A stretch of 60,948 nt of DNA. Source: Chlamydiota bacterium (GTDB taxonomy: Bacteria; Chlamydiota; Chlamydiia; Chlamydiales; SLFE01). The notes beneath the pieces were generated by a model. That model saw only the letters and a list, made by a program, of their open reading frames with translations. It was not told where the DNA came from and ran no database searches. This document shows, piece by piece, positions 7,338-47,355 of the stretch (the stretch's first letter is position 1; every line of letters starts with the position of its first letter). The DNA lies in contig JAAKFL010000001.1 in assembly GCA_011065065.1 (NCBI GenBank), positions 1 to 60,948 of the forward strand, in the 5' to 3' direction. Position numbers and translations under genes: made by a program.

Positions 7338-8294
7338 TCAAAAGTCACCCGGATTAAGAGGCGGCAACACCGTGACAAATGAAAGCTCTTCTACATTCTC
7401 CACCGTCGGAACAGCTTCGATTTCGTAATAATAATCCCCTTCGCGAAGCATCTGTATTTTCGTCACGATGCCCACCTTCAGCCCCTTTGGGAAAACTCCG
7501 TCCATCCCTGTCGTCACAAGAAGATCCCCAGCCTTTAAGATAGGCATATCCGATCTTAATTCTCGTTCAGGACCATATTTATCTTCATAATCATAATTGA
7601 AACCCTCTCCAATCAACAGATGCCCGCGAGATCTCCATAACACATTGGCACTCCCATGAACCTCTCCCTTTGCAAGGTAAAGTGTTTGCCCCTCGACCTC
7701 TCGCAGGGCGCGAACTGAAGGAGTGAGTTCAGGATCTGTGATCAGCCTGATGCGAGATTTATGTTCTTTCACAAGCTCCACAACCCCCACAATGGAATCT
7801 CCCACCACCACAGGACTGTTTTTGGCAATGACTGGACGTCCTAATTTTTTGTTCTCATTTTCTCCGACATTGATCCAAAGAGTGCTGTTCCAAGAAGTGG
7901 GAGATCGGTAAATCACTTTTGCCGGACAAGAGCATAGTTCGAGATCAAACAGGGTGTAGGCCTCTTTTTGATTCCTTTCAAGATTCTCTACTGTTTCTAA
8001 AGTTAATCCTGTTTGGGCAATCATCTCTGTGGCTGTAACCTGCAGCTCATGTTCCCAAATAAAAAGCGCTTTGATCTCTTCGAGCTTGCTTTTCAGGAGA
8101 GTATTTTCAAGCTCAAGGCTTTCGATTTTCTGTGCTATACTTTGGTCTTGTTGGTATTGGATTTTTTTCCAAAGGGGAGAGAGCATTCCCACCATGACAC
8201 TCTGAAATTTTTGTGATGTGGAAGCAGAGACACTTAAAAGAAGAACAAGGGTGAGGGCAATCAGAAGCCAAGGACGTTTTTTAATTTTTTTCAT
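7338..8294 (-). CDS. mreC: rod shape-determining protein MreC
   Basis: N-terminal TM segment, a coiled-coil region, and a C-terminal beta domain with TTGMDGVFPKGLKVG. Overlaps the aspC stop by 4 nt. Confidence 0.75.
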   Translation of the reverse strand: MKKIKKRPWLLIALTLVLLLSVSASTSQKFQSVMVGMLSPLWKKIQYQQDQSIAQKIESLELENTLLKSKLEEIKALFIWEHELQVTATEMIAQTGLTLETVENLERNQKEAYTLFDLELCSCPAKVIYRSPTSWNSTLWINVGENENKKLGRPVIAKNSPVVVGDSIVGVVELVKEHKSRIRLITDPELTPSVRALREVEGQTLYLAKGEVHGSANVLWRSRGHLLIGEGFNYDYEDKYGPERELRSDMPILKAGDLLVTTGMDGVFPKGLKVGIVTKIQMLREGDYYYEIEAVPTVENVEELSFVTVLPPLNPGDF

Positions 8295-9475
8295 AGCACT
8301 TCGTTGAACGCCTCAGCAACTGTTTTCACATTTTTTGAAGTCACTCCCGCGATGTTCATTCTCCCATTCGAAGGCATGTAGATTCCATGTTCAGCACGCA
8401 ACAAACTCACCTGTTCGCGGTTGAGTCCCGTCATTGAGAACAATCCCCGTTGGTTTTGAATAAACGAAAAGTCGATAGAACTTTTGGTAGAATAGAGTTC
8501 CGCAACCAAAGCTTTACGCATTTCAATGATGCGATCACGCATATTCACAAGCTCCTCTTTCCATTCCAATGTTAATTCCGGAGACTGTAAGATAGTTTTC
8601 ACTATTCGGGCTCCGTGGGCCGGAGGAGAAGAATAAATCCCCCGGACAGTAGATTTGATTTGTGAGGCTAACTTCTTTACCGTATCTGCAGAATCGACAA
8701 AGAACGCCAAAAGCCCGATTCTTTCTCCATATAAACCAAAATTTTTAGAATGAGAAATTGTCAAAGCCATTTCATGCCCCTCATCAGCGAAATGGCGAAT
8801 CACCGCCGCATCCTGATCAAGTCCCCCACTAAATCCCTGATAAGCCATGTCAAAAATGGGAAAAAGTCCTTTTTCCTTCACCAGTGTGGAGATGATTTTC
8901 CACTGGTCGAAAGTAGGATCTATCCCAGTCGGATTGTGGCAACAAGCATGAAAGAGGATGAGGTCCCCATTTTTCATCATTTTGATGGCATCACACATCT
9001 CTTCAAAATCAAGTGTATGGTTGTGAGAGTAAGGGTAATGACCCAGTTCAAAGCCGCAACGTGAGAAAATATGGCGGTGGTTTGACCATGACGGGTGCGA
9101 CAGATAGAGGGTAGAGTTAGGGAATTGTTCTTTAAGAAAATCGCCAGCAATTTTGAGCGCTCCAGACCCCCCAACAGTCTGGGACGCATAGACTCGAGAC
9201 CTGTGGGGTGAATCTTCCCCCATTGCCAATTTAAGAGATTCTTCAATAAATCCCGGATCACCATCCATAGGAAGATATTCGTTATTTAGATTTTGTTCTA
9301 GAAGACGGACTTCCGCCTTTTGAACGCTGGTCAGGACAAGGGGATGACCCTCGGCATCGCGATATGCCCCGACCCCTAAGTTCACCTTGTTAGGGCGCTG
9401 ATCAGCAGCGAATAACGGGGGAATACACAGTATTGGGTCTTCGGGAATGAGTTCAGTATTTTTAAAATAAGTCAT
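8291..9475 (-). CDS. aspC: aspartate/aromatic amino acid aminotransferase (class I)
   Basis: NLGVGAYRD near the N-terminus and the PLP-lysine motif SHSKNFGLYGERIG. Confidence 0.9.
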   Translation of the reverse strand: MTYFKNTELIPEDPILCIPPLFAADQRPNKVNLGVGAYRDAEGHPLVLTSVQKAEVRLLEQNLNNEYLPMDGDPGFIEESLKLAMGEDSPHRSRVYASQTVGGSGALKIAGDFLKEQFPNSTLYLSHPSWSNHRHIFSRCGFELGHYPYSHNHTLDFEEMCDAIKMMKNGDLILFHACCHNPTGIDPTFDQWKIISTLVKEKGLFPIFDMAYQGFSGGLDQDAAVIRHFADEGHEMALTISHSKNFGLYGERIGLLAFFVDSADTVKKLASQIKSTVRGIYSSPPAHGARIVKTILQSPELTLEWKEELVNMRDRIIEMRKALVAELYSTKSSIDFSFIQNQRGLFSMTGLNREQVSLLRAEHGIYMPSNGRMNIAGVTSKNVKTVAEAFNEVL

Positions 9476-9540
9476 AGACCTCCAGATGAGTCGAAATCAT
9501 TCAAAATTGTAATATAAAGAGTCTTTTTTTAAAACTCGCC

Positions 9541-9686
9541 TTTGTACAATTTTTGAACTCATCTTCCGAGAGAAGCTTCCTCCAGCTGGATAAATTTCTC
9601 AGGAAGGGTAAAAAATACCCTTCCTTCGAAATTTATTACGCTGGAGATTGCTTCTCTCTGGAATATTCGGTCAAAAATTGTACAAA
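9541..9686. repeat. 146-nt imperfect palindrome in the aspC/rpoD divergent intergenic region
   Basis: The termini tttgtacaatttttga (9541-9556) and tcaaaaattgtacaaa (9671-9686) are exact reverse complements. Interior blocks gagagaagc, ctccagc, ataaatttc and aggaagggta also pair. Confidence 0.75.
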
Positions 9687-9887
9687 ATCGAGTAAAGAAA
9701 TCTTGAGTTAAATCCCCAACTTCTATAAAAGATGGGGTATTGAATAATTCCAACACTAGCAGGCTTGACAAAAACCCCCACATATTCAATGATATTACGT
9801 ACAGATTCTGCGAATTTTTTTGCATAACTTTAAATAGTGAAGTGAAAGAATTTGCTTTTTTTGTCGACACTTTAATTTTACGGTGGC

Positions 9888-11552
9888 ATGAGCAAATCCA
9901 ACAATAAAGATACTTTTACTCCTCAACATCAGCAAAAGATTGATGAGCTGGTGACTCTTGCAAAAGACCAGGGTTTTATCACTTACGAAGAAATCAACGA
10001 TATCTTACCCATGTCGTTTGATAACCCTGAACTGATCGACCAGGCGTTGATTTTCCTGACGGGAATGGATATACAGATTCTCAATCAATCTGAAGTTGAG
10101 CGTCAAAAAGAGCGTAAAAAAGAGGCCAAAGAGCTTGAAGCTCTTCCTAAACGGGCAGAAGGGACACCGGATGATCCCGTACGAATGTACCTTAAAGAGA
10201 TGGGTTCAGTCCCTCTTCTTAGCCGAGAAGAAGAGGTTGAAATTTCCAAGCGAATTGAAAAAGCTCAGCAACAAGTTGAAAAAATTATTTTACGATTCCG
10301 ATATTCTGCTTCTGAAGCCATTGCCATAGCGGCGTATCTTGTTCAAGGTAAGGAACGTTTTGATAAGTGCATTTCGGAAAAAGAGGTTTCGAATAAACAG
10401 GAATTTTTGAAGAAGCTCCCTAAATTATGTGATTTGTTGAAAAATGAAGATCTTGCTTTGGAATATCTCTTTGTTCAGCTTGATAATCCCAAGATCAAGA
10501 AAACTCAGGTAGTAAAAGTTCAAGAGGAAGTTGAAAAGAGCCGGATCCGGACTCAGGCTTATTTAAGGCATCTGCATCTTCGCTCCAATATTATCGAAGA
10601 TTTTGGGGAAGTCATTCTCCAATCATACAATCGATTTTTGGAGTTAGAGAAAGAGATCAATGAGTTGGCCCCTCGTGCAGAGTTGAATCGATTTGCGATG
10701 GCCAAGATGAAAGCGGCCAAGCGGAAGTTGCAGAAGAAAGAGTTAGCAGCGGGCCGAACACTGGAAGAGTTTAAGAAAGATGTTCGGATGCTTTATCGTT
10801 GGATGGATAAAGCACAAGAGGCGAAGCGGGAGATGGTGGAATCCAATCTCCGTTTGGTCATTTCGATTGCAAAAAAGTATACTAACCGTGGTCTTTCCTT
10901 CTTGGATTTGATTCAAGAAGGGAATATGGGCTTGATGAAAGCTGTCGAGAAGTTTGAGTATCGTCGAGGGTATAAATTTTCGACATATGCGACTTGGTGG
11001 ATTCGTCAGGCGGTGACCAGGGCGATTGCTGACCAAGCGCGAACGATTCGAATACCGGTTCATATGATTGAGACCATCAATAAAGTGTTGCGTGGTGCCA
11101 AGAAGTTGATGATGGAGACGGGGCGTGAGCCTACGCCTGAGGAATTGGCTGAGGAACTCGGGATTACTCCAGAGCGTGTCCGCGAGATTTATAAAATCGC
11201 TCAGCATCCGATATCCCTTCAAGCGGAAGTGGGTGATGGGGGAGAAAGTCAGTTTGGGGACTTCTTGGAAGATACCACAGCCGACTCGCCATCCGAAGCC
11301 ACAGGTTATTCGATATTGAAGGACATGATGGCCGAAGTGCTTGAAACTTTGAGTGACAGAGAGCGGAAAGTTTTGATTCAACGATTTGGACTTGCTGATG
11401 GTAAGCCGAAAACCTTGGAAGAGGTGGGAGTTGAGTTCAACGTCACACGTGAACGGATTCGTCAGATTGAGGCCAAAGCGCTGCGTAAGATGAGGCACCC
11501 CACTCGGTCGAAGCGATTGCGATCTTTCCTAGAGTTCTTGGAAGAAGAATGA
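9888..11552 (+). CDS. rpoD: RNA polymerase primary sigma factor (sigma-70 / sigma-66 type)
   Basis: Region 2 motif [27 protein letters not shown] and region 4.2 motif [30 protein letters not shown]. Confidence 0.95.
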
Positions 11553-11612
11553 TACCTTATGTATTTATACCGATCGTGATTAAAAAATCGGGATTTTGGC
11601 TTTGAGAAAGAC

Positions 11613-11681
11613 CCGTGATTAAGCGATCATAAGTCGATCCATATTATTAATATTGATCGACTTATGATCGCTTAATCACGG
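11613..11681 (+). terminator. 27-bp perfect inverted repeat: candidate rpoD terminator and/or dinG leader structure
   Basis: ccgtgattaagcgatcataagtcgatc, a 15-nt AT loop, then gatcgacttatgatcgcttaatcacgg, followed by aggttttctcttt. The 3' arm abuts the GGAGG upstream of the dinG TTG start. Confidence 0.4.
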
Positions 11682-11692
11682 AGGTTTTCTCT

Positions 11693-13915
11693 TTGTCAAA
11701 AACCGATTTTTTAAACACGATTGGTATAGATCCCGAACCGATACTTGAGCTCTTAAAACCGGGCGGTCGATTATGCGCGTTCCTAAAGGAGTTTGAGTCA
11801 CGGCCTCAACAAGCGGAAATGATGGAAAGTGTCATTTCTGCTTTCAATGACAAAGAAATTTCTCTTATTGAAGCTGGAACCGGAACGGGTAAAAGTATCG
11901 CTTATCTAATTCCGGCTGTCATCAAAGCCGTTTATCATAAAGAACGGACACTGATCTCGACTAAAACAATTAATCTTCAGGAACAATTAATCCAAAAAGA
12001 CTTGCCGCTTGTCAGCAAGGTTTTGGGAGTCGACTTTAAGGCGGTTTTGGTCAAAGGGATGGGCAATTATCTTTGCCTGCGTAAACTACAAGATTCCTCG
12101 ATGGAAGAATTATTTCTTCCGAACAATCAAGCCGATCAGCTGCGAAGGATTGCCGCTTGGGGACAACAGACGAAGACGGGTTCAAAATCTGATCTTCCTT
12201 TTAATCCTTTCTCCGCTGTTTGGGAAAAGGTCAATTGCGAAGCTGATACTTGTACGTTTCGAAAGTGTCCTTTTTATCAGCAGTGTCACTTTTTTAAGGC
12301 GCGCGAAGAAGCCAAAGATGCGCAGATTTTGGTGTCAAACCATCACTTATTATTTGCTGACCTTGCTTTAAGAGCTGAAGAGGAGAATTATGAAGAAGCG
12401 GCTCTGTTGCCTTCGTACAAACATGTCGTGGTAGACGAAGCGCATCATATTGAAGAGGTGGCGACTGATTTCTTTGCACAACGCGTTTCGCGAACCGACT
12501 TGATGAAGATTATGGGACGATTGGCTTCGGAAAAGGCCGGAGATGATGCGGGGAGACTTCCTCTTCTCAAAAAAAAACTCATTCAATTTTACAAAAAAGG
12601 GCCGCATGATCAGATTGAGAACCTTCTGAATACTTTCAATGTCGATTTATCTTTTTGTCGTCGAGAAGTCATTCAAGGTATTGCCGATTTGTTTCAGGCG
12701 CTTTCATTTTTCTTTGAAGAAAAGCTTTCGAAACAGGATGAGGAAAATAAGCTTCGTCTCCATCCTCATCATTATTCAGAAAAAGTCTGGGAAGAAGAGG
12801 TAGTGCCGGCGGCACAAAAGTTCTTGCATTCCATTAAAAAATATGTGCGGATGCTTCAGACCCTCTGCCGTGATATTAGAGACATTGATCAAGATCAGCT
12901 TCAAGAACAAGCTCTAGGGTTGTTGACCGAAGTCAACGCTTATGCAGGCCGATTGGATTCTTATGGTCAGGTTGTTGAGGAATTTGTTTTTAGTGAGATC
13001 AAGGATGATAGTGTTCGTTGGATTGAAAGCCATCAAATGAAAACTTTGAATAACATTCACTTGATTGAAGCCAAGCTCGACGTCTCACCTCATTTAGTGC
13101 AGAACTTTTTCTCGAAATTTCAGACCATTATCCTGTGTAGTGCGACACTCAGCACAAATCAAAATTTCGGATTTATGAAAAAGAGGTTGGGGCTCGATTC
13201 AGATCTACTTTCTTGTCGCACGATCAATGAGAAGATTTTTCAATCTCCTTTTAACTTTCAAAAGCAATCGCTACTTCTGGTTCCTTCGACTTTACCGCCC
13301 CCTAACCATAAAAATTATGTTGATGTGGCATCTGAAAGCATATTGCAAGCGATTAAGGCCAGTCACGGAAACTGTTTCATTCTTTTTACATCATACACCA
13401 TGTTGAAACAATGTTATGAAAAACTGAGCTCAAGACTGCGAAGTCTCCGTTTCCCCATCATGAAGCAAGGAGATGATCAGAGGCAAGCTTTACTATGTTT
13501 GTTTCGAAAGACAGAAAGATCGGTCCTTTTTGCCACAGATTCGTTTTGGGAGGGAGTTGACGTTTCAGGGGAAGCTTTGCGTTGCGTGATTTTGGTGAAA
13601 TTGCCCTTCAAAGTCCCTTCTGAGCCTATTTTTCAGGCCCGTTCAGAGTTGATTGCCAAGAACGGAGGAGATCCCTTTAGGGATTATGCGCTTCCCGGAG
13701 CCGTTGTCAAATTCAAGCAAGGTTTTGGTCGATTGATTCGTCATAAGTGTGATCGAGGAGTCGTCGTTGTTCTCGATACCCGTTTGATGACCAAAGGGTA
13801 TGGAAAAATCTTCTTAAGAAGTTTGCCTGATTGTCCAAAATTGTTTACTCAGGATCTGGAAAAAGAGATGAAGGAATTTTATCGGCGGACTTATCCATTA
13901 GTTCTTTCGAGGTAA
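11693..13915 (+). CDS. dinG: DinG/XPD-family ATP-dependent DNA helicase
   Basis: Walker A AGTGTGKS, DEAH box VVDEAHH, and the Fe-S Cys cluster CEADTCTFRKCPFYQQC. Confidence 0.85.
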   Translation: MSKTDFLNTIGIDPEPILELLKPGGRLCAFLKEFESRPQQAEMMESVISAFNDKEISLIEAGTGTGKSIAYLIPAVIKAVYHKERTLISTKTINLQEQLIQKDLPLVSKVLGVDFKAVLVKGMGNYLCLRKLQDSSMEELFLPNNQADQLRRIAAWGQQTKTGSKSDLPFNPFSAVWEKVNCEADTCTFRKCPFYQQCHFFKAREEAKDAQILVSNHHLLFADLALRAEEENYEEAALLPSYKHVVVDEAHHIEEVATDFFAQRVSRTDLMKIMGRLASEKAGDDAGRLPLLKKKLIQFYKKGPHDQIENLLNTFNVDLSFCRREVIQGIADLFQALSFFFEEKLSKQDEENKLRLHPHHYSEKVWEEEVVPAAQKFLHSIKKYVRMLQTLCRDIRDIDQDQLQEQALGLLTEVNAYAGRLDSYGQVVEEFVFSEIKDDSVRWIESHQMKTLNNIHLIEAKLDVSPHLVQNFFSKFQTIILCSATLSTNQNFGFMKKRLGLDSDLLSCRTINEKIFQSPFNFQKQSLLLVPSTLPPPNHKNYVDVASESILQAIKASHGNCFILFTSYTMLKQCYEKLSSRLRSLRFPIMKQGDDQRQALLCLFRKTERSVLFATDSFWEGVDVSGEALRCVILVKLPFKVPSEPIFQARSELIAKNGGDPFRDYALPGAVVKFKQGFGRLIRHKCDRGVVVVLDTRLMTKGYGKIFLRSLPDCPKLFTQDLEKEMKEFYRRTYPLVLSR

Positions 13916-37390: not shown

Positions 37391-38113
37391 TTAATGAAAA
37401 ATTGAACTAAAAAAAGAAAGAATAGGATGGTCCATGCTGTAAAGAGCTTTTTTTGCAGATGGATTTCCTAATTCTTTGGCACGTCCATAATATTCACGCG
37501 CTTTCCCACGGTCTTTTGGGACTCCCAGCCCTTTTCGATACAGATCTCCGATTTTTCTTATTCCCGGAGGAGAATTGCTTTTTTCAGTACGTTGATACCA
37601 TTTTAATGCCGAGGCATAATTTCGGGATCGTAATTTGGCATCACCAATACGAATTTTGGCCAGAATGCTCCCTGCATCCGAAGCATTTTTATACCAACAA
37701 ATGGCTTTACAGATGTCAGCTTCCATCTTATGGATGTATAAATTATCTTCTTCCCAAAGAACCCCATCCCGGAATAGGTCTCCCATTTTGATCATACTGG
37801 GGATATGGTTCTTATCGCAGGCTTTTACTAACCAATACATGGATGTTTCAAAGTTTTCTTCATAAACATAACAACTGTGCCAAAACATGGATTCCGCTAC
37901 CCCTAATTCGGCCCCTTTTTTAGCCCACTTTTTCGATTTTTCGGGTTGATTGGTTTCGACATAAATTTGTCGGAGCATCTCTGCTGCTGCTCCATCTCCT
38001 TTCTTTGTCCGCTTTTTGAGTTGATAAATTGTGGGCTCTGCAGTGAGAGTATTGATAGCTTCGGCCTTGTTCCACAAGGGCTTATGTTCATTTGTGTTGT
38101 ACAGGGGATCCAT
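37391..38113 (-). CDS. Sel1-like (SLR/TPR) repeat protein
   Basis: Repeated A..WY.KAA..G...A...LG..Y..G.GV..D...A..WY units. Confidence 0.85.
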   Translation of the reverse strand: MDPLYNTNEHKPLWNKAEAINTLTAEPTIYQLKKRTKKGDGAAAEMLRQIYVETNQPEKSKKWAKKGAELGVAESMFWHSCYVYEENFETSMYWLVKACDKNHIPSMIKMGDLFRDGVLWEEDNLYIHKMEADICKAICWYKNASDAGSILAKIRIGDAKLRSRNYASALKWYQRTEKSNSPPGIRKIGDLYRKGLGVPKDRGKAREYYGRAKELGNPSAKKALYSMDHPILSFFSSIFH

Positions 38114-38153
38114 GGGTGCTCCTTTAAAAAATTAAATTAACATCCAGATATAT

Positions 38154-39491
38154 TTATTTCCAATTCAATCGTTTTCTAGCCAAAGGATGTCCTCTCCTTC
38201 CAGCTTTGAGAAGGAACTTGAACCCTTCATCAAAATCATCTGAAATCAAAAGGTCGCCAAGATGATACATCGCTTCAACGAGTCCTATGTTTGCCGCTTT
38301 TCTGAACCAAAATTCTGCACACTTTTGATTCACTTTTTTTCCAATTCCATCACGATAGCAAATTCCCATCGTATTCATCGCGATGGCATATCCCTTTTCT
38401 GCGGATTGGGAAAAATGTTCCCAGGCTTTTTCAAAATCTTGGGAGAATTCAGTTCCATTTGCGTACATTTTGCCCAGGTTGTAATGCGCTTTCGCACTTC
38501 CTTTTCTCGCAGCCTCTTGGTACCAGACCCGAGCAGAATGATAATCCTTTTCCACCCCTTTTCCCGTGTAGTATAAGGAGGCCAGATCATTCATAGCTTC
38601 GACATTATCTCTTTTAACGGCTTCTATGAAACACTTCAATGCCAGTTCATAATCCCGTGGAAGTCCTTTTCCGTGTAGATACATCCAACCTAAATGGCTC
38701 ATCGCTTTTGGATTTTTCATGGCCGCTGCTTTGATGTAATATTTTACCGCTTTATGATCGTTTTTTTTCATACCTAGTCCATTCTCATGCATAATGCCTA
38801 GTTTATCCAGTGCACCGGTGTTTCCTTTTTTGGCAGCCTCCTTAAAATATATTTTTGCGTTAAGATAACTTTGAGGGAGAAATTTTCCTTTAAAGAACAA
38901 CTTTCCAATCGCATATTTTGATGGAGCATGTCCCAATCTCGCGGCTTCAAGCCATAATTTATAGGCCTTGACTAAAGATTTCTCGACTTTTTTATGTATG
39001 TTTGCTCGTTCGTATAATAATTGACATTTCTGTTTATCTATTTTTAGGGCTGGCGGTTTGATGGCTTTTTGAGGTTCATAAATTGAACGTTCTAAGATCA
39101 TGGATTCGATTTCTGAAATTCCCTGCTCGAGTTTTTCAAAAAAATTGGGAGATTCTAGTTCTTCAATCAGAGCTTCAAGGTTTTTATCGGGCGTTTCAAA
39201 AGGTTCGGGAGGAGGTGGTTCATCTGGATAAATCGAGGTGATTTTTTCAAGGTCTGCAAACTCATCATCGATCGATCGTCTTGTATCAATATCCGCTGGC
39301 GGAGGGGTCTCCATTCGTACATTAGGAAAAATTTTATCAAGATCAGCATCCATAAGATTTACATGCGACCCCATCGTGATAGTTTTGATTGCTGCATGAG
39401 AGACTTTCCTATCTTCGACCAGGCTGGCAGGAAGAAATTTTTTGCAAAACTGGGGAAGGATGTCATTGAAATGTACCTTTCCTGTTTTCAT
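38154..39491 (-). CDS. Sel1-like repeat protein with a Pro/acidic N-terminal region
   Basis: About 7 SLR units (for example AVKYYIKAAAMKNPKAMSHLGWMYLHGKGLPRDYELA). Start placed at the ATG at 39491, preceded by GGAGA; the ORF extends to 39530. Confidence 0.85.
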   Translation of the reverse strand: MKTGKVHFNDILPQFCKKFLPASLVEDRKVSHAAIKTITMGSHVNLMDADLDKIFPNVRMETPPPADIDTRRSIDDEFADLEKITSIYPDEPPPPEPFETPDKNLEALIEELESPNFFEKLEQGISEIESMILERSIYEPQKAIKPPALKIDKQKCQLLYERANIHKKVEKSLVKAYKLWLEAARLGHAPSKYAIGKLFFKGKFLPQSYLNAKIYFKEAAKKGNTGALDKLGIMHENGLGMKKNDHKAVKYYIKAAAMKNPKAMSHLGWMYLHGKGLPRDYELALKCFIEAVKRDNVEAMNDLASLYYTGKGVEKDYHSARVWYQEAARKGSAKAHYNLGKMYANGTEFSQDFEKAWEHFSQSAEKGYAIAMNTMGICYRDGIGKKVNQKCAEFWFRKAANIGLVEAMYHLGDLLISDDFDEGFKFLLKAGRRGHPLARKRLNWK

Positions 39492-39546
39492 GGATATCTC
39501 CATGTTACTGAAACATGTGGGTAATATCAATGAGGAATGAGACTAT

Positions 39547-40527
39547 CTAATGGCTTTGGATGGCCATAAGGAGAGCCTCCTTTTGATCAGATGCCTTTGA
39601 CACGCTGACCAGTTCACAAATTTGTCCAATTTGTTTCTTAAGAGTCCTATAATGAGTGTTCGGTTGAAGAATATGACGGATGACTGTGTGATTTTTTAAA
39701 ATATCATAAACTTTATTAGCATTGGTTTGATAATCTGTCTTGATTGGGACAAAATTGGCCTCTTTTTTTAACACGACGGTCACATTTCCACCATAATCAG
39801 AGTGATCCACAAAGACACACTTCAATCCATTCAATTGTCCAAAAAAAGCGAGTGTTTCGGCATTAAAATGATAGAGATGTGCAAAGTGATAACAATTTCC
39901 TGGATAGTGACAGATGGCTTCAATATTGGGAACCTCAATAATCAAATGCCCACCTTCTTTTAAATGCTGAGCTAAAAGCCCCACTCTTGATTTGGGGTCT
40001 TGTAAATGCTCTAGCACATGAAACATCGTGATCACATCAAATGATTTCTCGACAGGAAGCTGATCCGAAATAAAGCCATTTTGAATGGGAAGTCCTAAAT
40101 CTTTTTGGGCATACTGAGCATATCCCTCGTTGGGCTCAATTCCCATCACGGACAATCCCTGTTGCTGCATCAAAAAGACAAACTCTCCTCCTCCCGAACC
40201 CAAGTCAAGCAACTCAGATCCCTCAGTCAGATACTCCGATAATTGATGCAAACGGTGCATGGCGACACGGCCAGCACGATAGGTATGTTTCTTTTTTGGC
40301 TTAAAAGTCCCTTTGTACTGCTTTCGATAATCTTTCTCATAAAATCTTTGGATCATTTCGCTATCCGGCTGGGGATCTGTCCACGCGAGACCACAAGTTT
40401 GACATAAAACGGTTCTCAACGGCTGATTGTGGCGGTCACATTCTCCAATAATCCACGTCTCGGTTCCACCGCAAAGATTGCAGGGAGTCTTAGATTGATT
40501 TGATGAAAATAAAGTCGTCAAAAGCAT
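39547..40527 (-). CDS. class I SAM-dependent methyltransferase with an N-terminal Cys4 zinc ribbon
   Basis: CNLCGG...CQTCG ribbon, SAM motif I LLDLGSGGGEF, and the post-I/II spacing typical of Methyltransf_11/23-type domains. Confidence 0.8.
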   Translation of the reverse strand: MLLTTLFSSNQSKTPCNLCGGTETWIIGECDRHNQPLRTVLCQTCGLAWTDPQPDSEMIQRFYEKDYRKQYKGTFKPKKKHTYRAGRVAMHRLHQLSEYLTEGSELLDLGSGGGEFVFLMQQQGLSVMGIEPNEGYAQYAQKDLGLPIQNGFISDQLPVEKSFDVITMFHVLEHLQDPKSRVGLLAQHLKEGGHLIIEVPNIEAICHYPGNCYHFAHLYHFNAETLAFFGQLNGLKCVFVDHSDYGGNVTVVLKKEANFVPIKTDYQTNANKVYDILKNHTVIRHILQPNTHYRTLKKQIGQICELVSVSKASDQKEALLMAIQSH

Positions 40528-40734
40528 TCCTTTTTGTCAATTATAGTGAATTTTGTGACTTGGGATCAAGGGTTAAAACGCCTATATTTTAAAGAAAAAA
40601 TTTGATATAATGTTTATAGAGAGAAGCTTAGTCATTGAATTTGCTTAAAACTTTAAAATTTTCTTTAATTGTTAGGCTTTTTTTGCCATTTTTGAATATA
40701 TATACATAATGTTTTATATCAATTTCAGGGGAAG

Positions 40735-42753
40735 ATGGCAGGAATGACAAGTTCTATTGGGAAAAGGCCCTTTATTCAGGAGATAAAATATCAGCTGAGT
40801 AGGGTTCATGACTGTGTTCTCCGTGGTTCCAATTCCCGGTTGTGGAGGGTGCAAAGAGAAGAAGATATTATGGAAACCATAACCCATAACAAGATCAAGA
40901 AGTTAATCAAGAAATTTGACCAGTTTGAAGAGCAACCTGGTGACTTTGAGGTGGTTGATGATATTCTGGCTCGGGCTGATCAATGTTTAAGGGAGGGTAA
41001 AAAATACAAATCCAAGCAGATGACGGCTGCCTGTCATAAGCTTGAGGGTCGCAAAGTGTCTTTGATTTATCGAACTGAGAGAGACGAAGACCTCTCAGTC
41101 CCCCACACTCAGGATTATTTAAAGCATGAATTGAATCAAAAAATGGTCGACTGGATCTATGTTTATCCTGGGTTTAATCCAGACTCGCATGATCGAGATC
41201 CAGAAAGAAAGATCATTGAAGTGTGTGAAAGGTATCCCGCTTACGCCAATTTGTTATTAAAAGATGAGAAGTTGCTAATTGAATTTTTTAAATGGGCGAT
41301 TCGCGACAACAATCAAGTCGCTCCTATGGTGATGTTTGCCTCTCTGCAAGAACTTTTGAAGAGATGCAATATTTCTCAAAGAACGGGATATAATGCAGGT
41401 GAAGATCTCAGGATTAAAACCGATTATGATAGAGAAGGACATATCCTCAGATCTTTGTGGTTGCCCATTGAAGCAACACCTCAGAATATTGCAGAAAGAG
41501 ACAAAAAGGTGACCCTTAAAGATGGTTCTGAGAGGACGATCGAGGAGATCCTGGAATTATTTAAAAATAAAGTTCACACACCCGGTGATTTGGAATTTTT
41601 TCCTCGAGTCGGCATCACTTACTGGCCTTCTTATGAACCTTGGAAAGTGATGAATGTTGCCAGTCCCACTTTTTGGCATGAGGGTCCGCAATTGAGAATT
41701 CTGGATGTTGAAGAAGCTCAGAATATTTATGGGAAAACTGTCCCAGGTCTTAAGATCATTGAACCCATGGTGCCTCTCGATAGTCTTATTGAACATGAGG
41801 AGGATGGAACCTATTGGATGGAGCATGATCGATTCCTTTTTAATGAAGTAGAACCGATTGAGTGGCATGGCAGTTTGGTGAAAGTGAGGATGAGGGAAAG
41901 AATTCCTGTTGACGGCAAGAATTTCATTCAAGTTGTGAGGGCCACGAAAGAAAAAGATATGAGTTTTCTTCGTACCCATTCTTTTGGTGACATCTTAATT
42001 CCCTTGGAATCGGGACGTTATTATCTTTTTAATATGGGAAAGTATCCAAAATTTTATCCCGAGACAACATATCGCTTGCTCAGCAGTTTTGTGAAAGTTG
42101 TTTTGGCCGTTTTGCAAATTGTGGATGACAATGTGTTCTTCAATCACCGCAATCACACACGGGAATGCATTGGGTTGAAGCCGGAAGAGGGGAGAGTGCT
42201 TTTAGAAATCGTGCGGTTCTTGTTAATTCTTGCACGGGATGACAAGCTTGGTTTCGAGTTCCAGACCGAAGGGTGTGCCAAGATGTTGCAGGTGGACATT
42301 GTGAAAACACTGATTTATATCACGACTACTTTTGAAGAAATTTCCGATGAAGAAATAAAAAAGAAAATTACCGAACTTCTCTACACTCCTGAGATGGATC
42401 AATATGACCTTGATCATGTTCCTAACTTTTTTAGGACAACTCTTGACAAAGTGAATCCCGAAGGGGCTTTGGGTATTGTTTTTACATTGATCAAAAAATG
42501 TTTTTATTGGATGCAACCTTATCTTGTCTCCTTGACTTACTTGATAATAGGTGTGTGGAGAGGAATGACATTTCAGATTGGAGGACGTGCCGTGAAGCTT
42601 TCTCATATGCGGTCGTCGTGCTGGCATGACGGTTCGTCTTATAAACACAGCCTTTATCACCCTGGATATATGCATCAGCAGCAGGAAGATAAAGGCATTA
42701 CTTTACTCAGACGAAAACTCGACCTGATTAAATTGCCGTTCTATAAGGATTAA
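40735..42753 (+). CDS. large lineage-specific protein, paralog A (conserved His415/Asp464/Cys514; C-terminal hydrophobic segment)
   Basis: 672 aa. Shares VCERYP...L..F..W.IRD and an ungapped 100-aa H...D.NV...R...C block with the downstream gene. Confidence 0.8.
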   Translation: MAGMTSSIGKRPFIQEIKYQLSRVHDCVLRGSNSRLWRVQREEDIMETITHNKIKKLIKKFDQFEEQPGDFEVVDDILARADQCLREGKKYKSKQMTAACHKLEGRKVSLIYRTERDEDLSVPHTQDYLKHELNQKMVDWIYVYPGFNPDSHDRDPERKIIEVCERYPAYANLLLKDEKLLIEFFKWAIRDNNQVAPMVMFASLQELLKRCNISQRTGYNAGEDLRIKTDYDREGHILRSLWLPIEATPQNIAERDKKVTLKDGSERTIEEILELFKNKVHTPGDLEFFPRVGITYWPSYEPWKVMNVASPTFWHEGPQLRILDVEEAQNIYGKTVPGLKIIEPMVPLDSLIEHEEDGTYWMEHDRFLFNEVEPIEWHGSLVKVRMRERIPVDGKNFIQVVRATKEKDMSFLRTHSFGDILIPLESGRYYLFNMGKYPKFYPETTYRLLSSFVKVVLAVLQIVDDNVFFNHRNHTRECIGLKPEEGRVLLEIVRFLLILARDDKLGFEFQTEGCAKMLQVDIVKTLIYITTTFEEISDEEIKKKITELLYTPEMDQYDLDHVPNFFRTTLDKVNPEGALGIVFTLIKKCFYWMQPYLVSLTYLIIGVWRGMTFQIGGRAVKLSHMRSSCWHDGSSYKHSLYHPGYMHQQQEDKGITLLRRKLDLIKLPFYKD

Positions 42754-42756
42754 TCT

Positions 42757-44544
42757 ATGCCTATGACATTCGATGGTCATTTGTCCCAAGTGACCGATTT
42801 ATTATCTGACAACCAACCCGTAGCAGGTCTTCCATCGGGACAATGGAAAAAAAACGGATGGATTCATGCAAAATTACAAAATTTATTTAATGTTGATGAC
42901 ACACGAATCTTCAGTTTGGGGAAAGCCTTTTGTAATGCACTTGATGATTTAGAAAAATCTTATCGCTTAGCGGAAGATCCCGAGTGGTTTTCATTAGGTG
43001 AAATCATTGTCTTAAAACTTAAAATCCAAGACTGCCTATCTGCCAGAAAGGTTGAGTTTTTGGTTCTGCAAAGGTTGATTGGCTTAAAGCGTCGGGAGAA
43101 TTTTTCTGCAGCAAAAATTCTTACCACTCTAGAGACTTATACTTTTCAAGAGGGAGCCATTAGATGGAAAAGGTCGCAAAAACATTTTTATATCACAAAA
43201 TGGTTGGATGATGATCAAGAGAGGGTTGATGATGTGTGTGAGCGTTATCCCGATTTTGTTCGTCTGTTATGTCGAGATCCCAACTTGTTTTCTCAGTTTT
43301 TAGATTGGACGATTCGCGATCATATGAGTGTGAGCAGTTTTGTTGAGTTCCCAAAAACACAAGAACTTTTGAGAAAAATTGAGTTAGCCCCTTCTGCTAG
43401 TATTGCCCGAAAACCCAAATTGAAGATCAAGACAAAACATGGGGTTAAATATCTCACTTTTCCACTCTATGCCAATCATCATGGAACCATAAGATCAAAA
43501 TCTGTGAGGTTATGGGAAAAGGATAGAGAATACGAATTAGCTGGAGGATATCGCACCACTTTACGTGAGATTTATCATGAGCTTTCGCGTAAAAACAAAC
43601 ATTGGGTGAACTATGTTATTACAGAAAACGGATTTGAGAATTGGAATGTACGCGAGTGGGGGACTCTTGATTCCGATGGAAAAAGTGTCCGTTCGGCTTT
43701 ACCAAGAGATCGCTGGTTCCACAACGTCCCCATTCTCGAGCGATTGAGCCTCGAAAAAGCGCAAAACCGATACGGACAAGACTTGGATGGTACCAACTAC
43801 GGAATAGCTTTGCGGGCAACTCGTCGTCGACAAGACCTCGATGTCATTGGATCTCATTCTTTTTTTGAGCTGTGCATTCCAGATAAAAAGGGAGGATATT
43901 TCACGATTTGTCCGGGTAAACTCACTTTATATCTTCCTCAATCTGTTTGGGATCTTGTCAAAATCTTTGGAAATACAGTTGAGGGAGTCATCGTGAGTCA
44001 CGATTCCAACGTTGTGTATCCATGGAGACAACAAACACGTTATTCTGTGACTGTTGAGACCAATGAGTTTCTTTGGTTTGCAGAGAAAATGAGGGTGTCT
44101 ATTGAAAATGGTCGCACTGGAAATTTAGTCTTCTCGCTCCTTGCTGATAGTTGTTCTGTCTGGTCCCAAAACCTGATGAATGAACTGCTCAAGCACTTGC
44201 CAGACGATCACCCTCAAAAATTGACGGCTGAAGAAGAGTTGAATTTCTTTATCATGAAAATTAAGGAGACAGAGCCCAATGGGCCGTTAAGTTATTTGAT
44301 CGGAATCATTAAGTTTTTTCCCGAGTTTTTACAACCTATCGTCACATATATTATCTTACTCGCTTTTTATCCATTCCGAGGGAAATGGGTGTACGAAGAA
44401 GATGGGACACCACGTTGGGTTTCAGCTTATCGAAGTCAATCGTGGAATCACTTGCAGATTCATAATCCAGCGAACTTGTTTCACCAACAGATCAATGAGG
44501 GAAGATTTTTGCCGAGTGGTCTTCTTCCCGAATGGCTTCAGTAA
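42757..44544 (+). CDS. large lineage-specific protein, paralog B (conserved His367/Asp416/Cys466; C-terminal hydrophobic segment)
   Basis: 595 aa. Starts 3 nt after the stop of paralog A and carries the same conserved blocks. Confidence 0.8.
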   Translation: MPMTFDGHLSQVTDLLSDNQPVAGLPSGQWKKNGWIHAKLQNLFNVDDTRIFSLGKAFCNALDDLEKSYRLAEDPEWFSLGEIIVLKLKIQDCLSARKVEFLVLQRLIGLKRRENFSAAKILTTLETYTFQEGAIRWKRSQKHFYITKWLDDDQERVDDVCERYPDFVRLLCRDPNLFSQFLDWTIRDHMSVSSFVEFPKTQELLRKIELAPSASIARKPKLKIKTKHGVKYLTFPLYANHHGTIRSKSVRLWEKDREYELAGGYRTTLREIYHELSRKNKHWVNYVITENGFENWNVREWGTLDSDGKSVRSALPRDRWFHNVPILERLSLEKAQNRYGQDLDGTNYGIALRATRRRQDLDVIGSHSFFELCIPDKKGGYFTICPGKLTLYLPQSVWDLVKIFGNTVEGVIVSHDSNVVYPWRQQTRYSVTVETNEFLWFAEKMRVSIENGRTGNLVFSLLADSCSVWSQNLMNELLKHLPDDHPQKLTAEEELNFFIMKIKETEPNGPLSYLIGIIKFFPEFLQPIVTYIILLAFYPFRGKWVYEEDGTPRWVSAYRSQSWNHLQIHNPANLFHQQINEGRFLPSGLLPEWLQ

Positions 44545-44793: not shown

Positions 44794-47355
44794 TTACGAA
44801 AGGTGCCCCTGAATGAAACCCATGATCTTCATCATGTGCACCTGGTCCGTTGAACCGAACACCTTTCCAAGCTTCTCATCTGGATTGATATTCCGCTTAT
44901 CCTTCGGATCCTGAAGATCGTTCGCTTTGATATACTCCCACACCTTCTTTAACACATCACCACGCGGCATTTCGTCAGCACCTGTAATGGCGGCTAGCTC
45001 TGCCGATAGCTTAAGGGGTTTGGTGGTTACAGCAGTATTTTTTCGTGTTTTCTTAGTTTTTGTTTTCGCCTTAGCCTTCGCTTTTCCTTTGGCTTTTTTC
45101 GCTTTTTTCTTGTAGGGGGTGCGAGGATAATTGGGATATTTTTCTTTGAGTTTATCCAAATCGTTGACAATGACATCACACTCGGGATAGGTCGAGCACG
45201 AATAAAATACTTTTCCAAATCGCGAACGACGCGCTGTAATTTTTCCTGGACAATCAATCGCAGGACATTCTGGCATATCGGCCTCAGGAATCGCTAACTC
45301 TCCTTTCTTAGGAATCTGGATGATTCCTCGACAATCAGGATAGCGTGAACACCCTAAAAAAGTGCCGTACCTTCCGTGACGAATCTTCATCTCCGATTGA
45401 CACTTAGGACAGGGTTGATCCCAGTCAAAATCCTCAGCATAATCTTCTTTGGAGAAGTCCATTTGCTCAATGGGAGCACTAAATGTACACTCGGGATAAT
45501 TGGAACAGCCGAAAAAATACTTCGATTTGAACCACACCTTTTGCAACTTGCCGCCACAATCAGGACAATCTTTATCAGTCAGGATTTTGGGAATAAAGGC
45601 CGACTTTTCCGCTTCTTCAAGTGTTGGAATAAAGTCATCCCAAAACTCACGAATGAGCGATTTCCAGTCTTTCTTGTCCGCAGCAATGAGTTCGAGTGTA
45701 TCTTCCAAATTTGCCGTGAAGCCTACATCCATAATTTTGGTAAAGTTAGCCTCCAATAAATCAGCAATCACACATCCTAGCTCAGTCGGCTTGAGGCGAT
45801 TTCCCTCTTTTACTGTGTATTCACGATTTTGAATTTTGTTCATGATCGAGGCGTAAGTTGAAGGACGCCCAATTCCCGATTTCTCCAGCTCCTTCACCAA
45901 CGAAGCTTCAGTAAATCGTGGCGGAGGACGGGTAAAAGATTGTTCAGATGTGAGTTCCTGAAGTGACAATGATTGACCTTCCTGGAGGTCAGGAAGCTTC
46001 CGGTCAAGCTCTTCTTCATCATCATCATCATCATCCATCATCTCATGATAGGCGGCCAACCACCCAGAAAACTTCAACACTGAACCTGTAGCTCGTAACA
46101 TAATATTGTCACCCGCTTGAATGTCTGCAGACAGAGTGTCATAAATGGCCGATTTCATCTGTGAGGCAATAAATCTTTGCCAGATCAACAAATAGATGTT
46201 GAATTGGTCGTTGCTCAAATAAGGGCGGACAGTGTCAGGGTGGTTATGAAGATTTGTCGGCCGTATCGCTTCGTGAGCATCCTGTGAATTCTTCTTAGAT
46301 GAATACATTCTTGGCTTTTGTGGGACATACTCGTTACCAAAACGATCAGCGATGTATTTACGGGCTTCATCAATAGCATTTGGTTCCACACGAACAGAGT
46401 CTGTACGCATGTAGGTAATGAGACCCTCTGTTCCCGCGTTCCCTAATTCGAGACCTTCATAAAGCTGCTGTGCGATGCTCATTGTTCGGGAAGTGGAGTA
46501 GCCGTGGTGGCGGCTAGCCTCTTGTTGTAAAGTTGAGGTGATAAACGGAGGAACCGGATTTCTTTTCTTTTCTTTCCGTTCTACCTTAGTCACCGAATAA
46601 GGAACATCTTTCATCATAGAAAGAATTTTTTGCGCCTCTTCTTCATTTCCAATGAGAGTGACCTCTTTCCCTTCAATAGGTTCTTTTTCCACTTTCTTCC
46701 CATCGACAGAATAAAGCGATGCTTTAAAAGACTTTGCATCATCCAACAGTAAAAGAAGAGCCCCTAAATTCCAATACTCGACAGGATTGAACGCTTCGAT
46801 CTCTCTTTCCCTTTGCACCACTAACTTTAACGCAACTGACTGCACTCTTCCAGCAGATACCCACTTCGATTTTCCTCTTTGAATCCTGCGGTTTAATAAC
46901 GGAGAAATCTTATATCCCACGATCCGGTCCAGTAACCGTCTCGCTTGTTGCGCATCCACAAGCGGCTGATTGATCTCCCGGGGGTTTTCTAATGCTCTTG
47001 AGACTTCTTCTTTCGTGATCGCATTGAATGAAATCCGCTTACATTTTGTGGATTCAGGGAGAATCTGTTTAATATGCCAGGCAATGGCTTCTCCTTCACG
47101 GTCAGGGTCAGGGGAAAGGTAGACGACATCAGCCTCTTTGGCAGCTTTCTTCAAGCGGTCGATGACTGCCTTCTTATCCGCCATAATTTGGTAGATCGGC
47201 TCGAAATCATTATCAGTATCAATACCAAAATCTTTTTGCGGCAGATCGCGGATATGTCCAACCGAGGATTCAAAAGCATATTTTGAACCTAGGAATTTTT
47301 TTAATGTTTTTATCTTTGCGGGCGACTCCACAATGATCAGCGGCTTCTTGGCCAT
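44794..47355 (-). CDS. topA: DNA topoisomerase I with a C-terminal SWIB domain
   Basis: Toprim N-terminus LIIVESPAKIKT, three Cys4 zinc ribbons, a Lys-rich linker KKAKKAKGKAKAKAKTKTKK, and a C-terminal SWIB-like segment LSAELAAITG...VLKKVWEYIKANDLQDP. Confidence 0.95.
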   Translation of the reverse strand: MAKKPLIIVESPAKIKTLKKFLGSKYAFESSVGHIRDLPQKDFGIDTDNDFEPIYQIMADKKAVIDRLKKAAKEADVVYLSPDPDREGEAIAWHIKQILPESTKCKRISFNAITKEEVSRALENPREINQPLVDAQQARRLLDRIVGYKISPLLNRRIQRGKSKWVSAGRVQSVALKLVVQREREIEAFNPVEYWNLGALLLLLDDAKSFKASLYSVDGKKVEKEPIEGKEVTLIGNEEEAQKILSMMKDVPYSVTKVERKEKKRNPVPPFITSTLQQEASRHHGYSTSRTMSIAQQLYEGLELGNAGTEGLITYMRTDSVRVEPNAIDEARKYIADRFGNEYVPQKPRMYSSKKNSQDAHEAIRPTNLHNHPDTVRPYLSNDQFNIYLLIWQRFIASQMKSAIYDTLSADIQAGDNIMLRATGSVLKFSGWLAAYHEMMDDDDDDEEELDRKLPDLQEGQSLSLQELTSEQSFTRPPPRFTEASLVKELEKSGIGRPSTYASIMNKIQNREYTVKEGNRLKPTELGCVIADLLEANFTKIMDVGFTANLEDTLELIAADKKDWKSLIREFWDDFIPTLEEAEKSAFIPKILTDKDCPDCGGKLQKVWFKSKYFFGCSNYPECTFSAPIEQMDFSKEDYAEDFDWDQPCPKCQSEMKIRHGRYGTFLGCSRYPDCRGIIQIPKKGELAIPEADMPECPAIDCPGKITARRSRFGKVFYSCSTYPECDVIVNDLDKLKEKYPNYPRTPYKKKAKKAKGKAKAKAKTKTKKTRKNTAVTTKPLKLSAELAAITGADEMPRGDVLKKVWEYIKANDLQDPKDKRNINPDEKLGKVFGSTDQVHMMKIMGFIQGHLS

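Follow-up and report, generated by a model that had tools for sequence, protein, structure and literature searches.

A conserved and unannotated protein family of Chlamydiota-type genomes with an active-site-like His/Asp/Arg/Cys set, represented by a tandem gene pair

The stretch of DNA analysed here (the window, 60,948 nucleotides of a contig from a Chlamydiae metagenome-assembled genome, MAG) carries two adjacent genes, termed A and B, whose products belong to an unannotated, strongly conserved protein family in Chlamydiota-type genomes marked by an active-site-like set of His, Asp, Arg and Cys residues. The original prediction for this region, drawn from the sequence alone, had proposed a novel family of Cys-dependent enzymes, and this proposal holds in that the conserved set looks catalytic, with His predicted on a beta-strand and Cys predicted to cap a helix. 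The favoured interpretation, which we hold at even chances, is that A and B are thiol enzymes of a very divergent circularly permuted papain-like (NlpC/P60) branch.

Judged by sequence comparison, A and B are genuine co-oriented paralogs with homology far above chance. The two open reading frames (ORFs), of 672 and 595 aa as originally described, match the NCBI MAG proteins K940chlam3_00041 and K940chlam3_00042 at 100%, and on the same strand only 3 nt separate the stop codon of A from the start of B. BLASTP aligned A 155-654 with B 152-582 at E=7e-27 and 23% identity, and within this low overall identity A 414-520 and B 366-472 align without a gap, in agreement with the block of about 100 residues noticed earlier. 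The codon positions given for the His, Asp and Cys of both proteins were also arithmetically correct.

Word-index searches identified 17 close relatives, and a word-index homolog search using the alignment added no further members. An exhaustive hidden Markov model (HMM) search with the close-relative alignment recovered 547 representatives (clusters at 50% identity) at E<=1e-3, with 338 at E<=1e-30, the proteins being nearly all 450-700 aa long and matched over their full length. His, Asp and Cys are unchanged in 16/16 close homologs covering these positions. The same invariance, which had been predicted from the two proteins alone, was borne out by an alignment of 150 representatives at about 25% identity to A, on which the following counts rest (offsets are counted from the His). 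His (A H415) is present in 150/150 and Cys (A C514) in 149/150, the remaining one being a gap, while the Asp position (A D464) is D in 147/150 and E in 3/150. An Arg at His+57 (A R472 / B R424), overlooked in the original prediction, is likewise present in 150/150. The spacing between His and Cys is 99 residues in 109/150 and 98-101 in 144/150, and that between His and Asp is 49 in 117/150.

Around these four residues the family has a recognizable signature. Asn directly precedes Cys in 137/150, giving the family consensus motif 'ENC', with Gln at Cys-6 in 131/150 and Trp at Cys+3 in 129/150; P423, G435 and P442 (A numbering) are at least 96% conserved. The secondary positions listed originally fared unevenly: P+27 (144/150), G+20 (145/150), Y+14 (129/150), K+21 (128/150), N+51 (134/150) and G+12 (113/150) are family-wide features, and V+52 and R+61 are not. 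The core has the consensus HAYLEVAIPxGDGRYxIYPFGKFA ... YPDENxFYxHRQHA ... GNLVFQIESENCAKWVQ, in which His+12 to +21 corresponds to G-R-Y-x-I-Y-P-F-G-K with no conserved Asn, Glu or Asp. The N-terminal block VCERYP...W.IRD shared by A and B proved real, with its W187 at least 90% conserved family-wide, and the conserved residues of the N-terminal and middle domains include E65, R113, W140, W187, R216, E287 and W297. Within the family A and B represent a divergent clade that has lost the Gln at Cys-6 and whose A-type members have Gly, and B-type members Ser, in place of the Asn before Cys.

Structural placement was read from the DSSP strings and predicted local distance difference test (pLDDT) values of two models, an AlphaFold2 model of full-length A built on a 17-sequence alignment (pLDDT 80.3, predicted template modelling score 0.80) and an AlphaFold model of the B catalytic domain only (aa 318-595; pLDDT 72.8). 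A and B are predicted to be three-part soluble proteins of about 600 aa, with a helical N-terminal domain followed by a beta-rich middle domain and, C-terminally, a putative catalytic domain that in the A model is alpha/beta. An insertion of about 56 aa (A aa ~340-395) is specific to the A-type and is missing from B and from the family consensus. The putative catalytic core of A is modelled in the order strand, His415 strand, strand, 436-463 segment, Asp464/Asn466/Arg472, strand, helix and a helix capped by Cys514, the strand that follows the His415 strand being short (429-433). Strands and helices follow one another in the same order in the B model, with its Cys three residues into the helix.

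Neither A nor B has a signal peptide or a convincing transmembrane segment by hydropathy, and they and the family proteins look soluble. The C-terminal hydrophobic stretch noted originally is present in both proteins, with Kyte-Doolittle values over 19 residues of 1.3 (A) and 1.6 (B), but its comparison with an LRAT-like membrane anchor has not stood, since only 11/150 members are transmembrane-like there (a best 19-residue hydropathy >=1.6 in the C-terminal part, against 4/150 members for the N-terminal part). In the models further helices and strands lie behind this stretch, which is how a globular domain would look.

That His, Cys, Asp and Arg are almost absolutely conserved at about 25% identity is a pattern typical of active sites and favours a catalytic reading. 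The opposite view, that these are non-enzymatic structural or binding proteins whose conserved residues are purely structural, could draw on the lack of significant similarity to any enzyme and of any measured activity, but the active-site-like pattern across 150 representatives makes it highly improbable; structural cores usually conserve Gly, Pro, Trp or hydrophobic residues. Somewhat less improbable, if still unlikely, is that His, Asp and Cys are metal ligands, for example of a catalytic or structural zinc, in a metalloenzyme or metal-stabilised scaffold. A single His, Asp and Cys that are invariant and fixed in their spacing would suit such a site, His with Asp and Cys being a known zinc-ligand set, and no papain-like structural match speaks against it. 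The arrangement is nevertheless that of a papain-type enzyme, with Cys at the N-terminus of a helix and preceded by Asn, Gln six residues upstream and His on a strand, and the weak profile matches described below include no metalloenzyme family.

As the original prediction had it, A and B could be assigned to no known family, having no match in Pfam, NCBIfam or the PDB; for Pfam and NCBIfam no relevant match was found even at E<=10. PADLOC (anti-phage defence) profiles gave no match at E<=1 to A or B or to three further members, and literature searches found no paper describing the family. A member-by-member Pfam scan of 151 members, run in two disjoint halves (79 + 72), gave a recurrent weak signal to Lnb_N (PF13387, formerly DUF4105), which was matched below threshold by 15/151 members. 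Lnb_N was found in 10/79 members of the first half (best E 0.0038), where nearly all other families were singletons, and in 5/72 of the second (best E 0.0015), and was the sole Pfam family matched by more than two members in each half. In both matches that were inspected (P0036 residues 401-462, with Cys448; P0144 residues 410-470, with Cys456) Lnb_N profile positions 94-154 of 175 map to the Cys segment, that is the helix and the ENC motif. PPPDE/Peptidase_C97 was matched by 2/151 members (best E 0.068) and the permuted papain-like family YebB of NCBIfam by one (E 0.065), both below significance. Lnb_N, PPPDE and YebB are all circularly permuted papain-like (NlpC/P60-type) families with His ahead of Cys. 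A guess that the members with 'ENCAHW' were the ones matching PPPDE turned out to be wrong.

The order of a His strand followed by a Cys helix, the 'NC' motif of the family and these weak profile matches point to a permuted papain-like branch. Such a distant relationship, which the original prediction had also raised, is the best available hypothesis, and its chances appear roughly balanced; the evidence does not establish that the proteins belong to any named family. The candidate group, plausible but unproven, would be the H-box/NC enzymes such as Lnb/DUF4105, LRAT/PLAAT, TseH, YiiX/YebB and PPPDE. The earlier idea finds weak though consistent support in the 'ENC' motif, the recurrent sub-threshold Lnb_N matches and the matches to PPPDE and YebB; a structural match to a papain-like protein was looked for and not found.

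A number of observations weigh against a papain-like relationship. No profile match reached or exceeded any curated threshold; the best inspected Lnb_N match scored 17.2 bits (E 0.0038) against a gathering score of 22.2, and an E of 0.0015 among 151 queries is insignificant alone and fairly often expected by chance. The recurrence of Lnb_N is not independent evidence because the queries are mutually homologous, the family consensus sequence searched against Pfam gave no Lnb_N match, and the matches are limited to about 60 residues in the Cys half of the domain, leaving the His outside. With hhalign the family ENC motif falls on the NCEHF motif at Cys113 of PLAAT3 (P=0.0024) over only 17-20 columns, and the probability against PLAAT/LRAT was about 10% with the NC motif alone aligned, the targets being PLAAT3 alone and a four-sequence PLAAT/LRAT profile, with the PLAAT3 sequence verified against the PDB. 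The position of the usual third polar residue of NlpC/P60 enzymes (His+12 to +17, on the next strand) is occupied by conserved Gly and Tyr. In A and B themselves the N of the NC motif is replaced by G and S, respectively, and the Gln at Cys-6 is missing; in the A model the segments flanking the putative active site, 436-463 and 507-511, have a pLDDT below 50.

Structure-based comparison gave no more support. Foldseek searches with full-length A against the PDB and with the B catalytic domain against the PDB and BFVD found no papain-like or other neighbour, the best E being 0.43-0.58 and the top matches having template modelling scores of <=0.2 and root-mean-square deviations >10 A, so the check by AlphaFold and Foldseek that the original prediction had suggested did not return a significant match to a papain-like fold. 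PDB sequence and profile searches, run with A and B and with profiles of the 150 members and of a sub-clade, gave only spurious matches to syntenin. The syntenin match is to human syntenin-1 (for example 7fsg) at E 0.016-0.07, in which 'QINGENCAGW' resembles 'QIESENCAKW'. Foldseek matches to a Vibrio phospholipase, seen repeatedly, and to SseI (E 4.6) were rejected as not significant.

The lack of structural neighbours for both the full-length A and the domain-only B model is in line with a rival in which His, Asp, Arg and Cys are catalytic but the thiol enzyme has a new fold unrelated to papain-like or NlpC/P60 enzymes, the NC resemblance being convergent or due to chance. The confinement of all profile matches, each below threshold, to about 60 residues round the Cys and the absence of a conserved polar residue at the usual third position are in keeping with such a fold. 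Against it, the weak matches include three different permuted papain-like families with no other fold class recurring, and both the geometry of a His strand and a Cys helix cap and the 99-residue spacing match Lnb. A new fold seems rather unlikely. Equally doubtful is the broader proposition of a structurally new Cys-His-Asp(-Arg) enzyme class confined to Chlamydiota, with either a new fold or an extremely divergent permuted papain-like branch bearing two unique accessory domains, in which the two paralogs would act as a module on a host or envelope substrate (a lipid or ubiquitin-like modifier) in a reaction so far undescribed in bacteria.

Lnb is among the nearest known counterparts. DUF4105/Lnb is the Bacteroides lipoprotein N-acyltransferase, with a predicted triad of His49-Asn66-Cys148 in which C148 is essential (bioRxiv 10.1101/2024.05.31.596883), and DUF4105 has been placed as a permuted NlpC/P60 clade beside the lipid-targeting toxins Tox-Act1 and TseH of the type VI secretion system (T6SS), for both of which the catalytic His and Cys are essential for toxicity (PMC12994826). 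Lnb and the family share a His that precedes the Cys by 99 residues (H49/C148 in Lnb) and an NC-type motif. They differ in that the family has no conserved residue matching the third triad residue at His+17 (Asn66 in Lnb, Glu81 in TseH), while the invariant Asp (+49) and Arg (+57) of the family have not been described for Lnb. In addition, Lnb is a periplasmic domain on a multi-pass membrane domain, whereas the family has no N-terminal hydrophobic segment and A and B have two additional N-terminal domains that amount to about 350 residues. TseH and Tox-Act1 would belong to the same proposed superfamily branch as the family, but are small toxin domains encoded with immunity and secretion-system genes; the neighbourhoods of A and B hold no immunity-like or T6SS genes, and housekeeping genes are found instead (uvrB and topA, with valS at other loci). 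TseH (6V98) was absent among the 50 Foldseek matches listed for each of the A and B searches.

The LRAT/PLAAT (HRASLS) proteins resemble the family in the succession of His strand, strand, flexible loop, strand and helix and then 'SENC' at a helix start, as is apparent when the family consensus LVFQIESENCAKW is set beside PLAAT3 VLYKLTSENCEHF. In relation to the NCEHF-type motif of LRAT/PLAAT, both models place the family Cys within three residues of the helix start, with G in A and S in B before it. None of the 151 members matched Pfam LRAT (PF04970), and no Foldseek match to PLAAT structures was found. PLAAT3 has a second His at +12 (H23/H35) where the family has Gly in 113/150, the C-terminal transmembrane anchor of LRAT/PLAAT is not conserved in the family, and A and B are four to five times larger. 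PPPDE/DeSI (Peptidase_C97) and YiiX/YaeF/YebB (C92) share the permuted order of His then Cys, with no structural match; the spacing between His and Cys is about 70 in DeSI-1 and 99 in the family.

If the thiol-enzyme interpretation is right, Cys514 of A and Cys466 of B, at the helix start, would be the nucleophile, and His415 and His367, on a beta-strand 99 residues upstream, would act as the general base that activates it. Attack of the Cys on an ester, thioester or amide carbonyl would give an acyl-thioester, which would then pass its acyl group either to water, as in a hydrolase or phospholipase, or to an acceptor nucleophile, as in an acyltransferase. Asp464 and Arg472 (D416 and R424 in B) could serve to orient the His or to stabilise the transition state or oxyanion, or they could brace the sheet or fold. 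Between the His hairpin and Asp464, the low-confidence segment A 436-463, hydrophobic to amphipathic in character, may form a lid or bind membrane or substrate; in PLAAT/LRAT a flexible, membrane-interacting loop sits at this position. The conserved N-terminal and middle domains probably provide substrate recognition. The most likely chemistry appears to be acyl transfer or hydrolysis with a lipid or a peptide/isopeptide as substrate, and we lean slightly towards a lipid. The analysis demonstrates the homology of the proteins, the invariance of the residues and their predicted secondary-structure placement, the synteny and the taxonomic range recovered; catalysis, the class of fold and the substrate are inferred.

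The linear order of His, Asp and Cys had also led to the proposal of a deubiquitinase of clan CE, and the tandem arrangement could be seen in the same light, as ChlaDub1 and ChlaDub2 of Chlamydia trachomatis are tandem CE-clan paralogs with this order of residues. In CE enzymes His and Asp are about 15-20 residues apart on adjacent strands, and in the family they are 49 apart. No match to Peptidase_C48, C55 or any CE family was found for the 151 members at E<=5, nor did Foldseek find a match to any of the many CE structures in the PDB. ChlaDub1, which is mentioned in PMC10318531, and ChlaDub2 have no detected sequence or structural similarity to A and B and differ in spacing and size. A clan CE (Ulp1/ChlaDub/YopJ-like) deubiquitinase or acetyltransferase is effectively refuted.

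A genome scan with a sub-clade alignment found the family at 23 loci, with titles that name Parachlamydiaceae (including isolate HS-T3), Waddlia/Waddliaceae, Chlamydiales, Chlamydiia and one MAG labelled Verrucomicrobia; with this one exception the named records recovered are all Chlamydiota-type. Plasmids searched by tblastn gave no family match. Same-strand tandem pairs are the rule and usually lie beside housekeeping genes, being found at 10/23 of the scanned loci and, by local HMM search of the window and fetched loci, in the window and in the related loci L002, L003 and L005. A-B is a two-gene, operon-like pair held together across genomes. In L002, L003 and L005 the pair lies with its 3-nt spacing in synteny between uvrB and topA, with the order uvrB, pair, topA intact in L002 and L003; in L005 the interval from uvrB to topA holds three copies in tandem together with five other genes, and the L001 sequence stops before any uvrB position. 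The three L005 copies (8001-13772) encode 660, 630 and 592 aa, the middle one having arisen by recent duplication of the upstream (A) type. A second locus type adjoins valS, and a 2.29-Mb Waddliaceae contig has family copies at two sites.

Within each locus type the upstream copies are closest to upstream copies and the downstream to downstream, and this grouping by position indicates that the pairs are old and have been retained. H, D and C are retained in 44 of 44 copies from the window and 28 related loci, and K, P and R in every copy except that of L028. As both members of the pair retain the full residue set, both are probably active.

In the window the pair is flanked by the genes listed in Table 1, and a local HMM search found no family members there other than A and B. 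Two F-box genes, two Sel1-repeat genes and one methyltransferase gene (35483-40527), a set of repeat or eukaryote-like genes, lie between uvrB and A. The original prediction had drawn on the F-box genes to suggest a deubiquitinase-like or lipid-modifying effector pair; the two genes are indeed present, but their linkage to the pair does not hold, the block being absent from the syntenic loci L002, L003 and L005. At this position L002 has a gene for 177 aa without a Pfam match, L003 has Sel1/tetratricopeptide-repeat genes and L005 has nothing. Since related genomes have other genes or none in it, the uvrB-to-A interval looks like a variable insertion hotspot, and an insert of this kind that is absent from the three syntenic loci gives no guilt by association. 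The topoisomerase I-SWIB/MDM2 fusion also adjoins the pair in L002, L003 and L005 and is two separate ORFs in L001.

Table 1. Positions of the gene pair, its putative catalytic residues and domains, and neighbouring genes in the window
Feature	Position	Strand	Remarks
Gene A (K940chlam3_00041)	40735..42753	+	672 aa; upstream-type pair member; ORF list, family HMM E=4e-129
Gene B (K940chlam3_00042)	42757..44544	+	595 aa; downstream-type pair member; family HMM E=5e-147
Candidate alternative A start, Met46	40870..40872	+	five full-length A-type homologs start at aligned 'MET...'
A N-terminal all-helical domain (predicted)	40870..41394	+	aa ~46-220; DSSP, pLDDT mostly 83-96
A conserved VCERYP...W.IRD block	41221-41307	+	aa 163-191, in helical domain
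A beta-rich middle domain (predicted)	41410..41919	+	aa ~226-395
A putative catalytic core	41920..42330	+	aa 396-532; AlphaFold model and family alignment
A His415 codon	41977..41979	+	proposed general base; second residue of strand 414-423
A Asp464 codon	42124..42126	+	147 D + 3 E of 150
A Arg472 codon	42148..42150	+	invariant Arg; directly before strand 473-481
A Cys514 codon	42274..42276	+	proposed nucleophile; second residue of helix 513-532
B putative catalytic core	43798..44208	+	aa 348-484
B His367 codon	43855-43857	+	
B Asp416 codon	44002-44004	+	
B Arg424 codon	44026-44028	+	
B Cys466 codon	44152-44154	+	
F-box gene 1	35483-36250		
F-box gene 2	36309-37322		
Sel1-repeat gene 1	37391-38113	-	
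Sel1-repeat gene 2	38154-39530	-	
S-adenosylmethionine (SAM)-methyltransferase gene	39547-40527	-	diverges from A; N-terminal CxxC...CxxC motif
topA-SWIB fusion gene	44794-47355	-	converges on B; SWIB/MDM2 domain C-terminal, Pfam E 3e-27

The annotated start of A may be too far upstream, because five homologs begin at Met46 and the first 45 codons (40735-40869) are poorly conserved; in the AlphaFold model these codons have a pLDDT of 29-61. In favour of the annotated start at 40735 are a promoter-like site at 40683-40710 and a purine-rich GGGGAAG motif ahead of the ATG.

Most of the proteins by which environmental chlamydiae, as obligate intracellular symbionts, interact with their hosts are unknown. 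Here a family of hundreds of sequence clusters, with tandem pairs at fixed chromosomal positions, has no Pfam or NCBIfam model. Lipoprotein N-acyltransferases and lipid-targeting toxins have lately been recognised as members of the NlpC/P60-type superfamily; should A and B prove to be permuted NlpC/P60 acyltransferases or hydrolases, the superfamily would gain a branch of large, soluble, multi-domain proteins of intracellular bacteria, and the Cys would be a concrete, mutable target for functional work. Should they not, the family would represent a new thiol-enzyme fold.

Several further features were observed in the window and at the related loci. Between 30001 and 32000 of the window the AT skew is strongly negative (-0.31) across tandem ORFs of about 400 aa (29909-31120 and 31120-32340), which by synteny with L002 are paralogous Trp/Tyr permease genes and lie upstream of trpS and uvrB. 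Two Parachlamydiaceae genomes have an opposite-strand gene between the tandem family copies (L009 5582-6571, minus strand; L010 5732-6739, minus strand), and the one in L010 encodes the N-terminal domain of the opioid growth factor receptor (OGFr_N, E 1.7e-23), which is known mainly from animals. In Waddliaceae-type genomes, genes for RhoGEF-domain and ankyrin-repeat proteins, which are eukaryote-like, lie a few kb off the topA side of the syntenic loci (L001 10943-12148 and L002 15009-17752).

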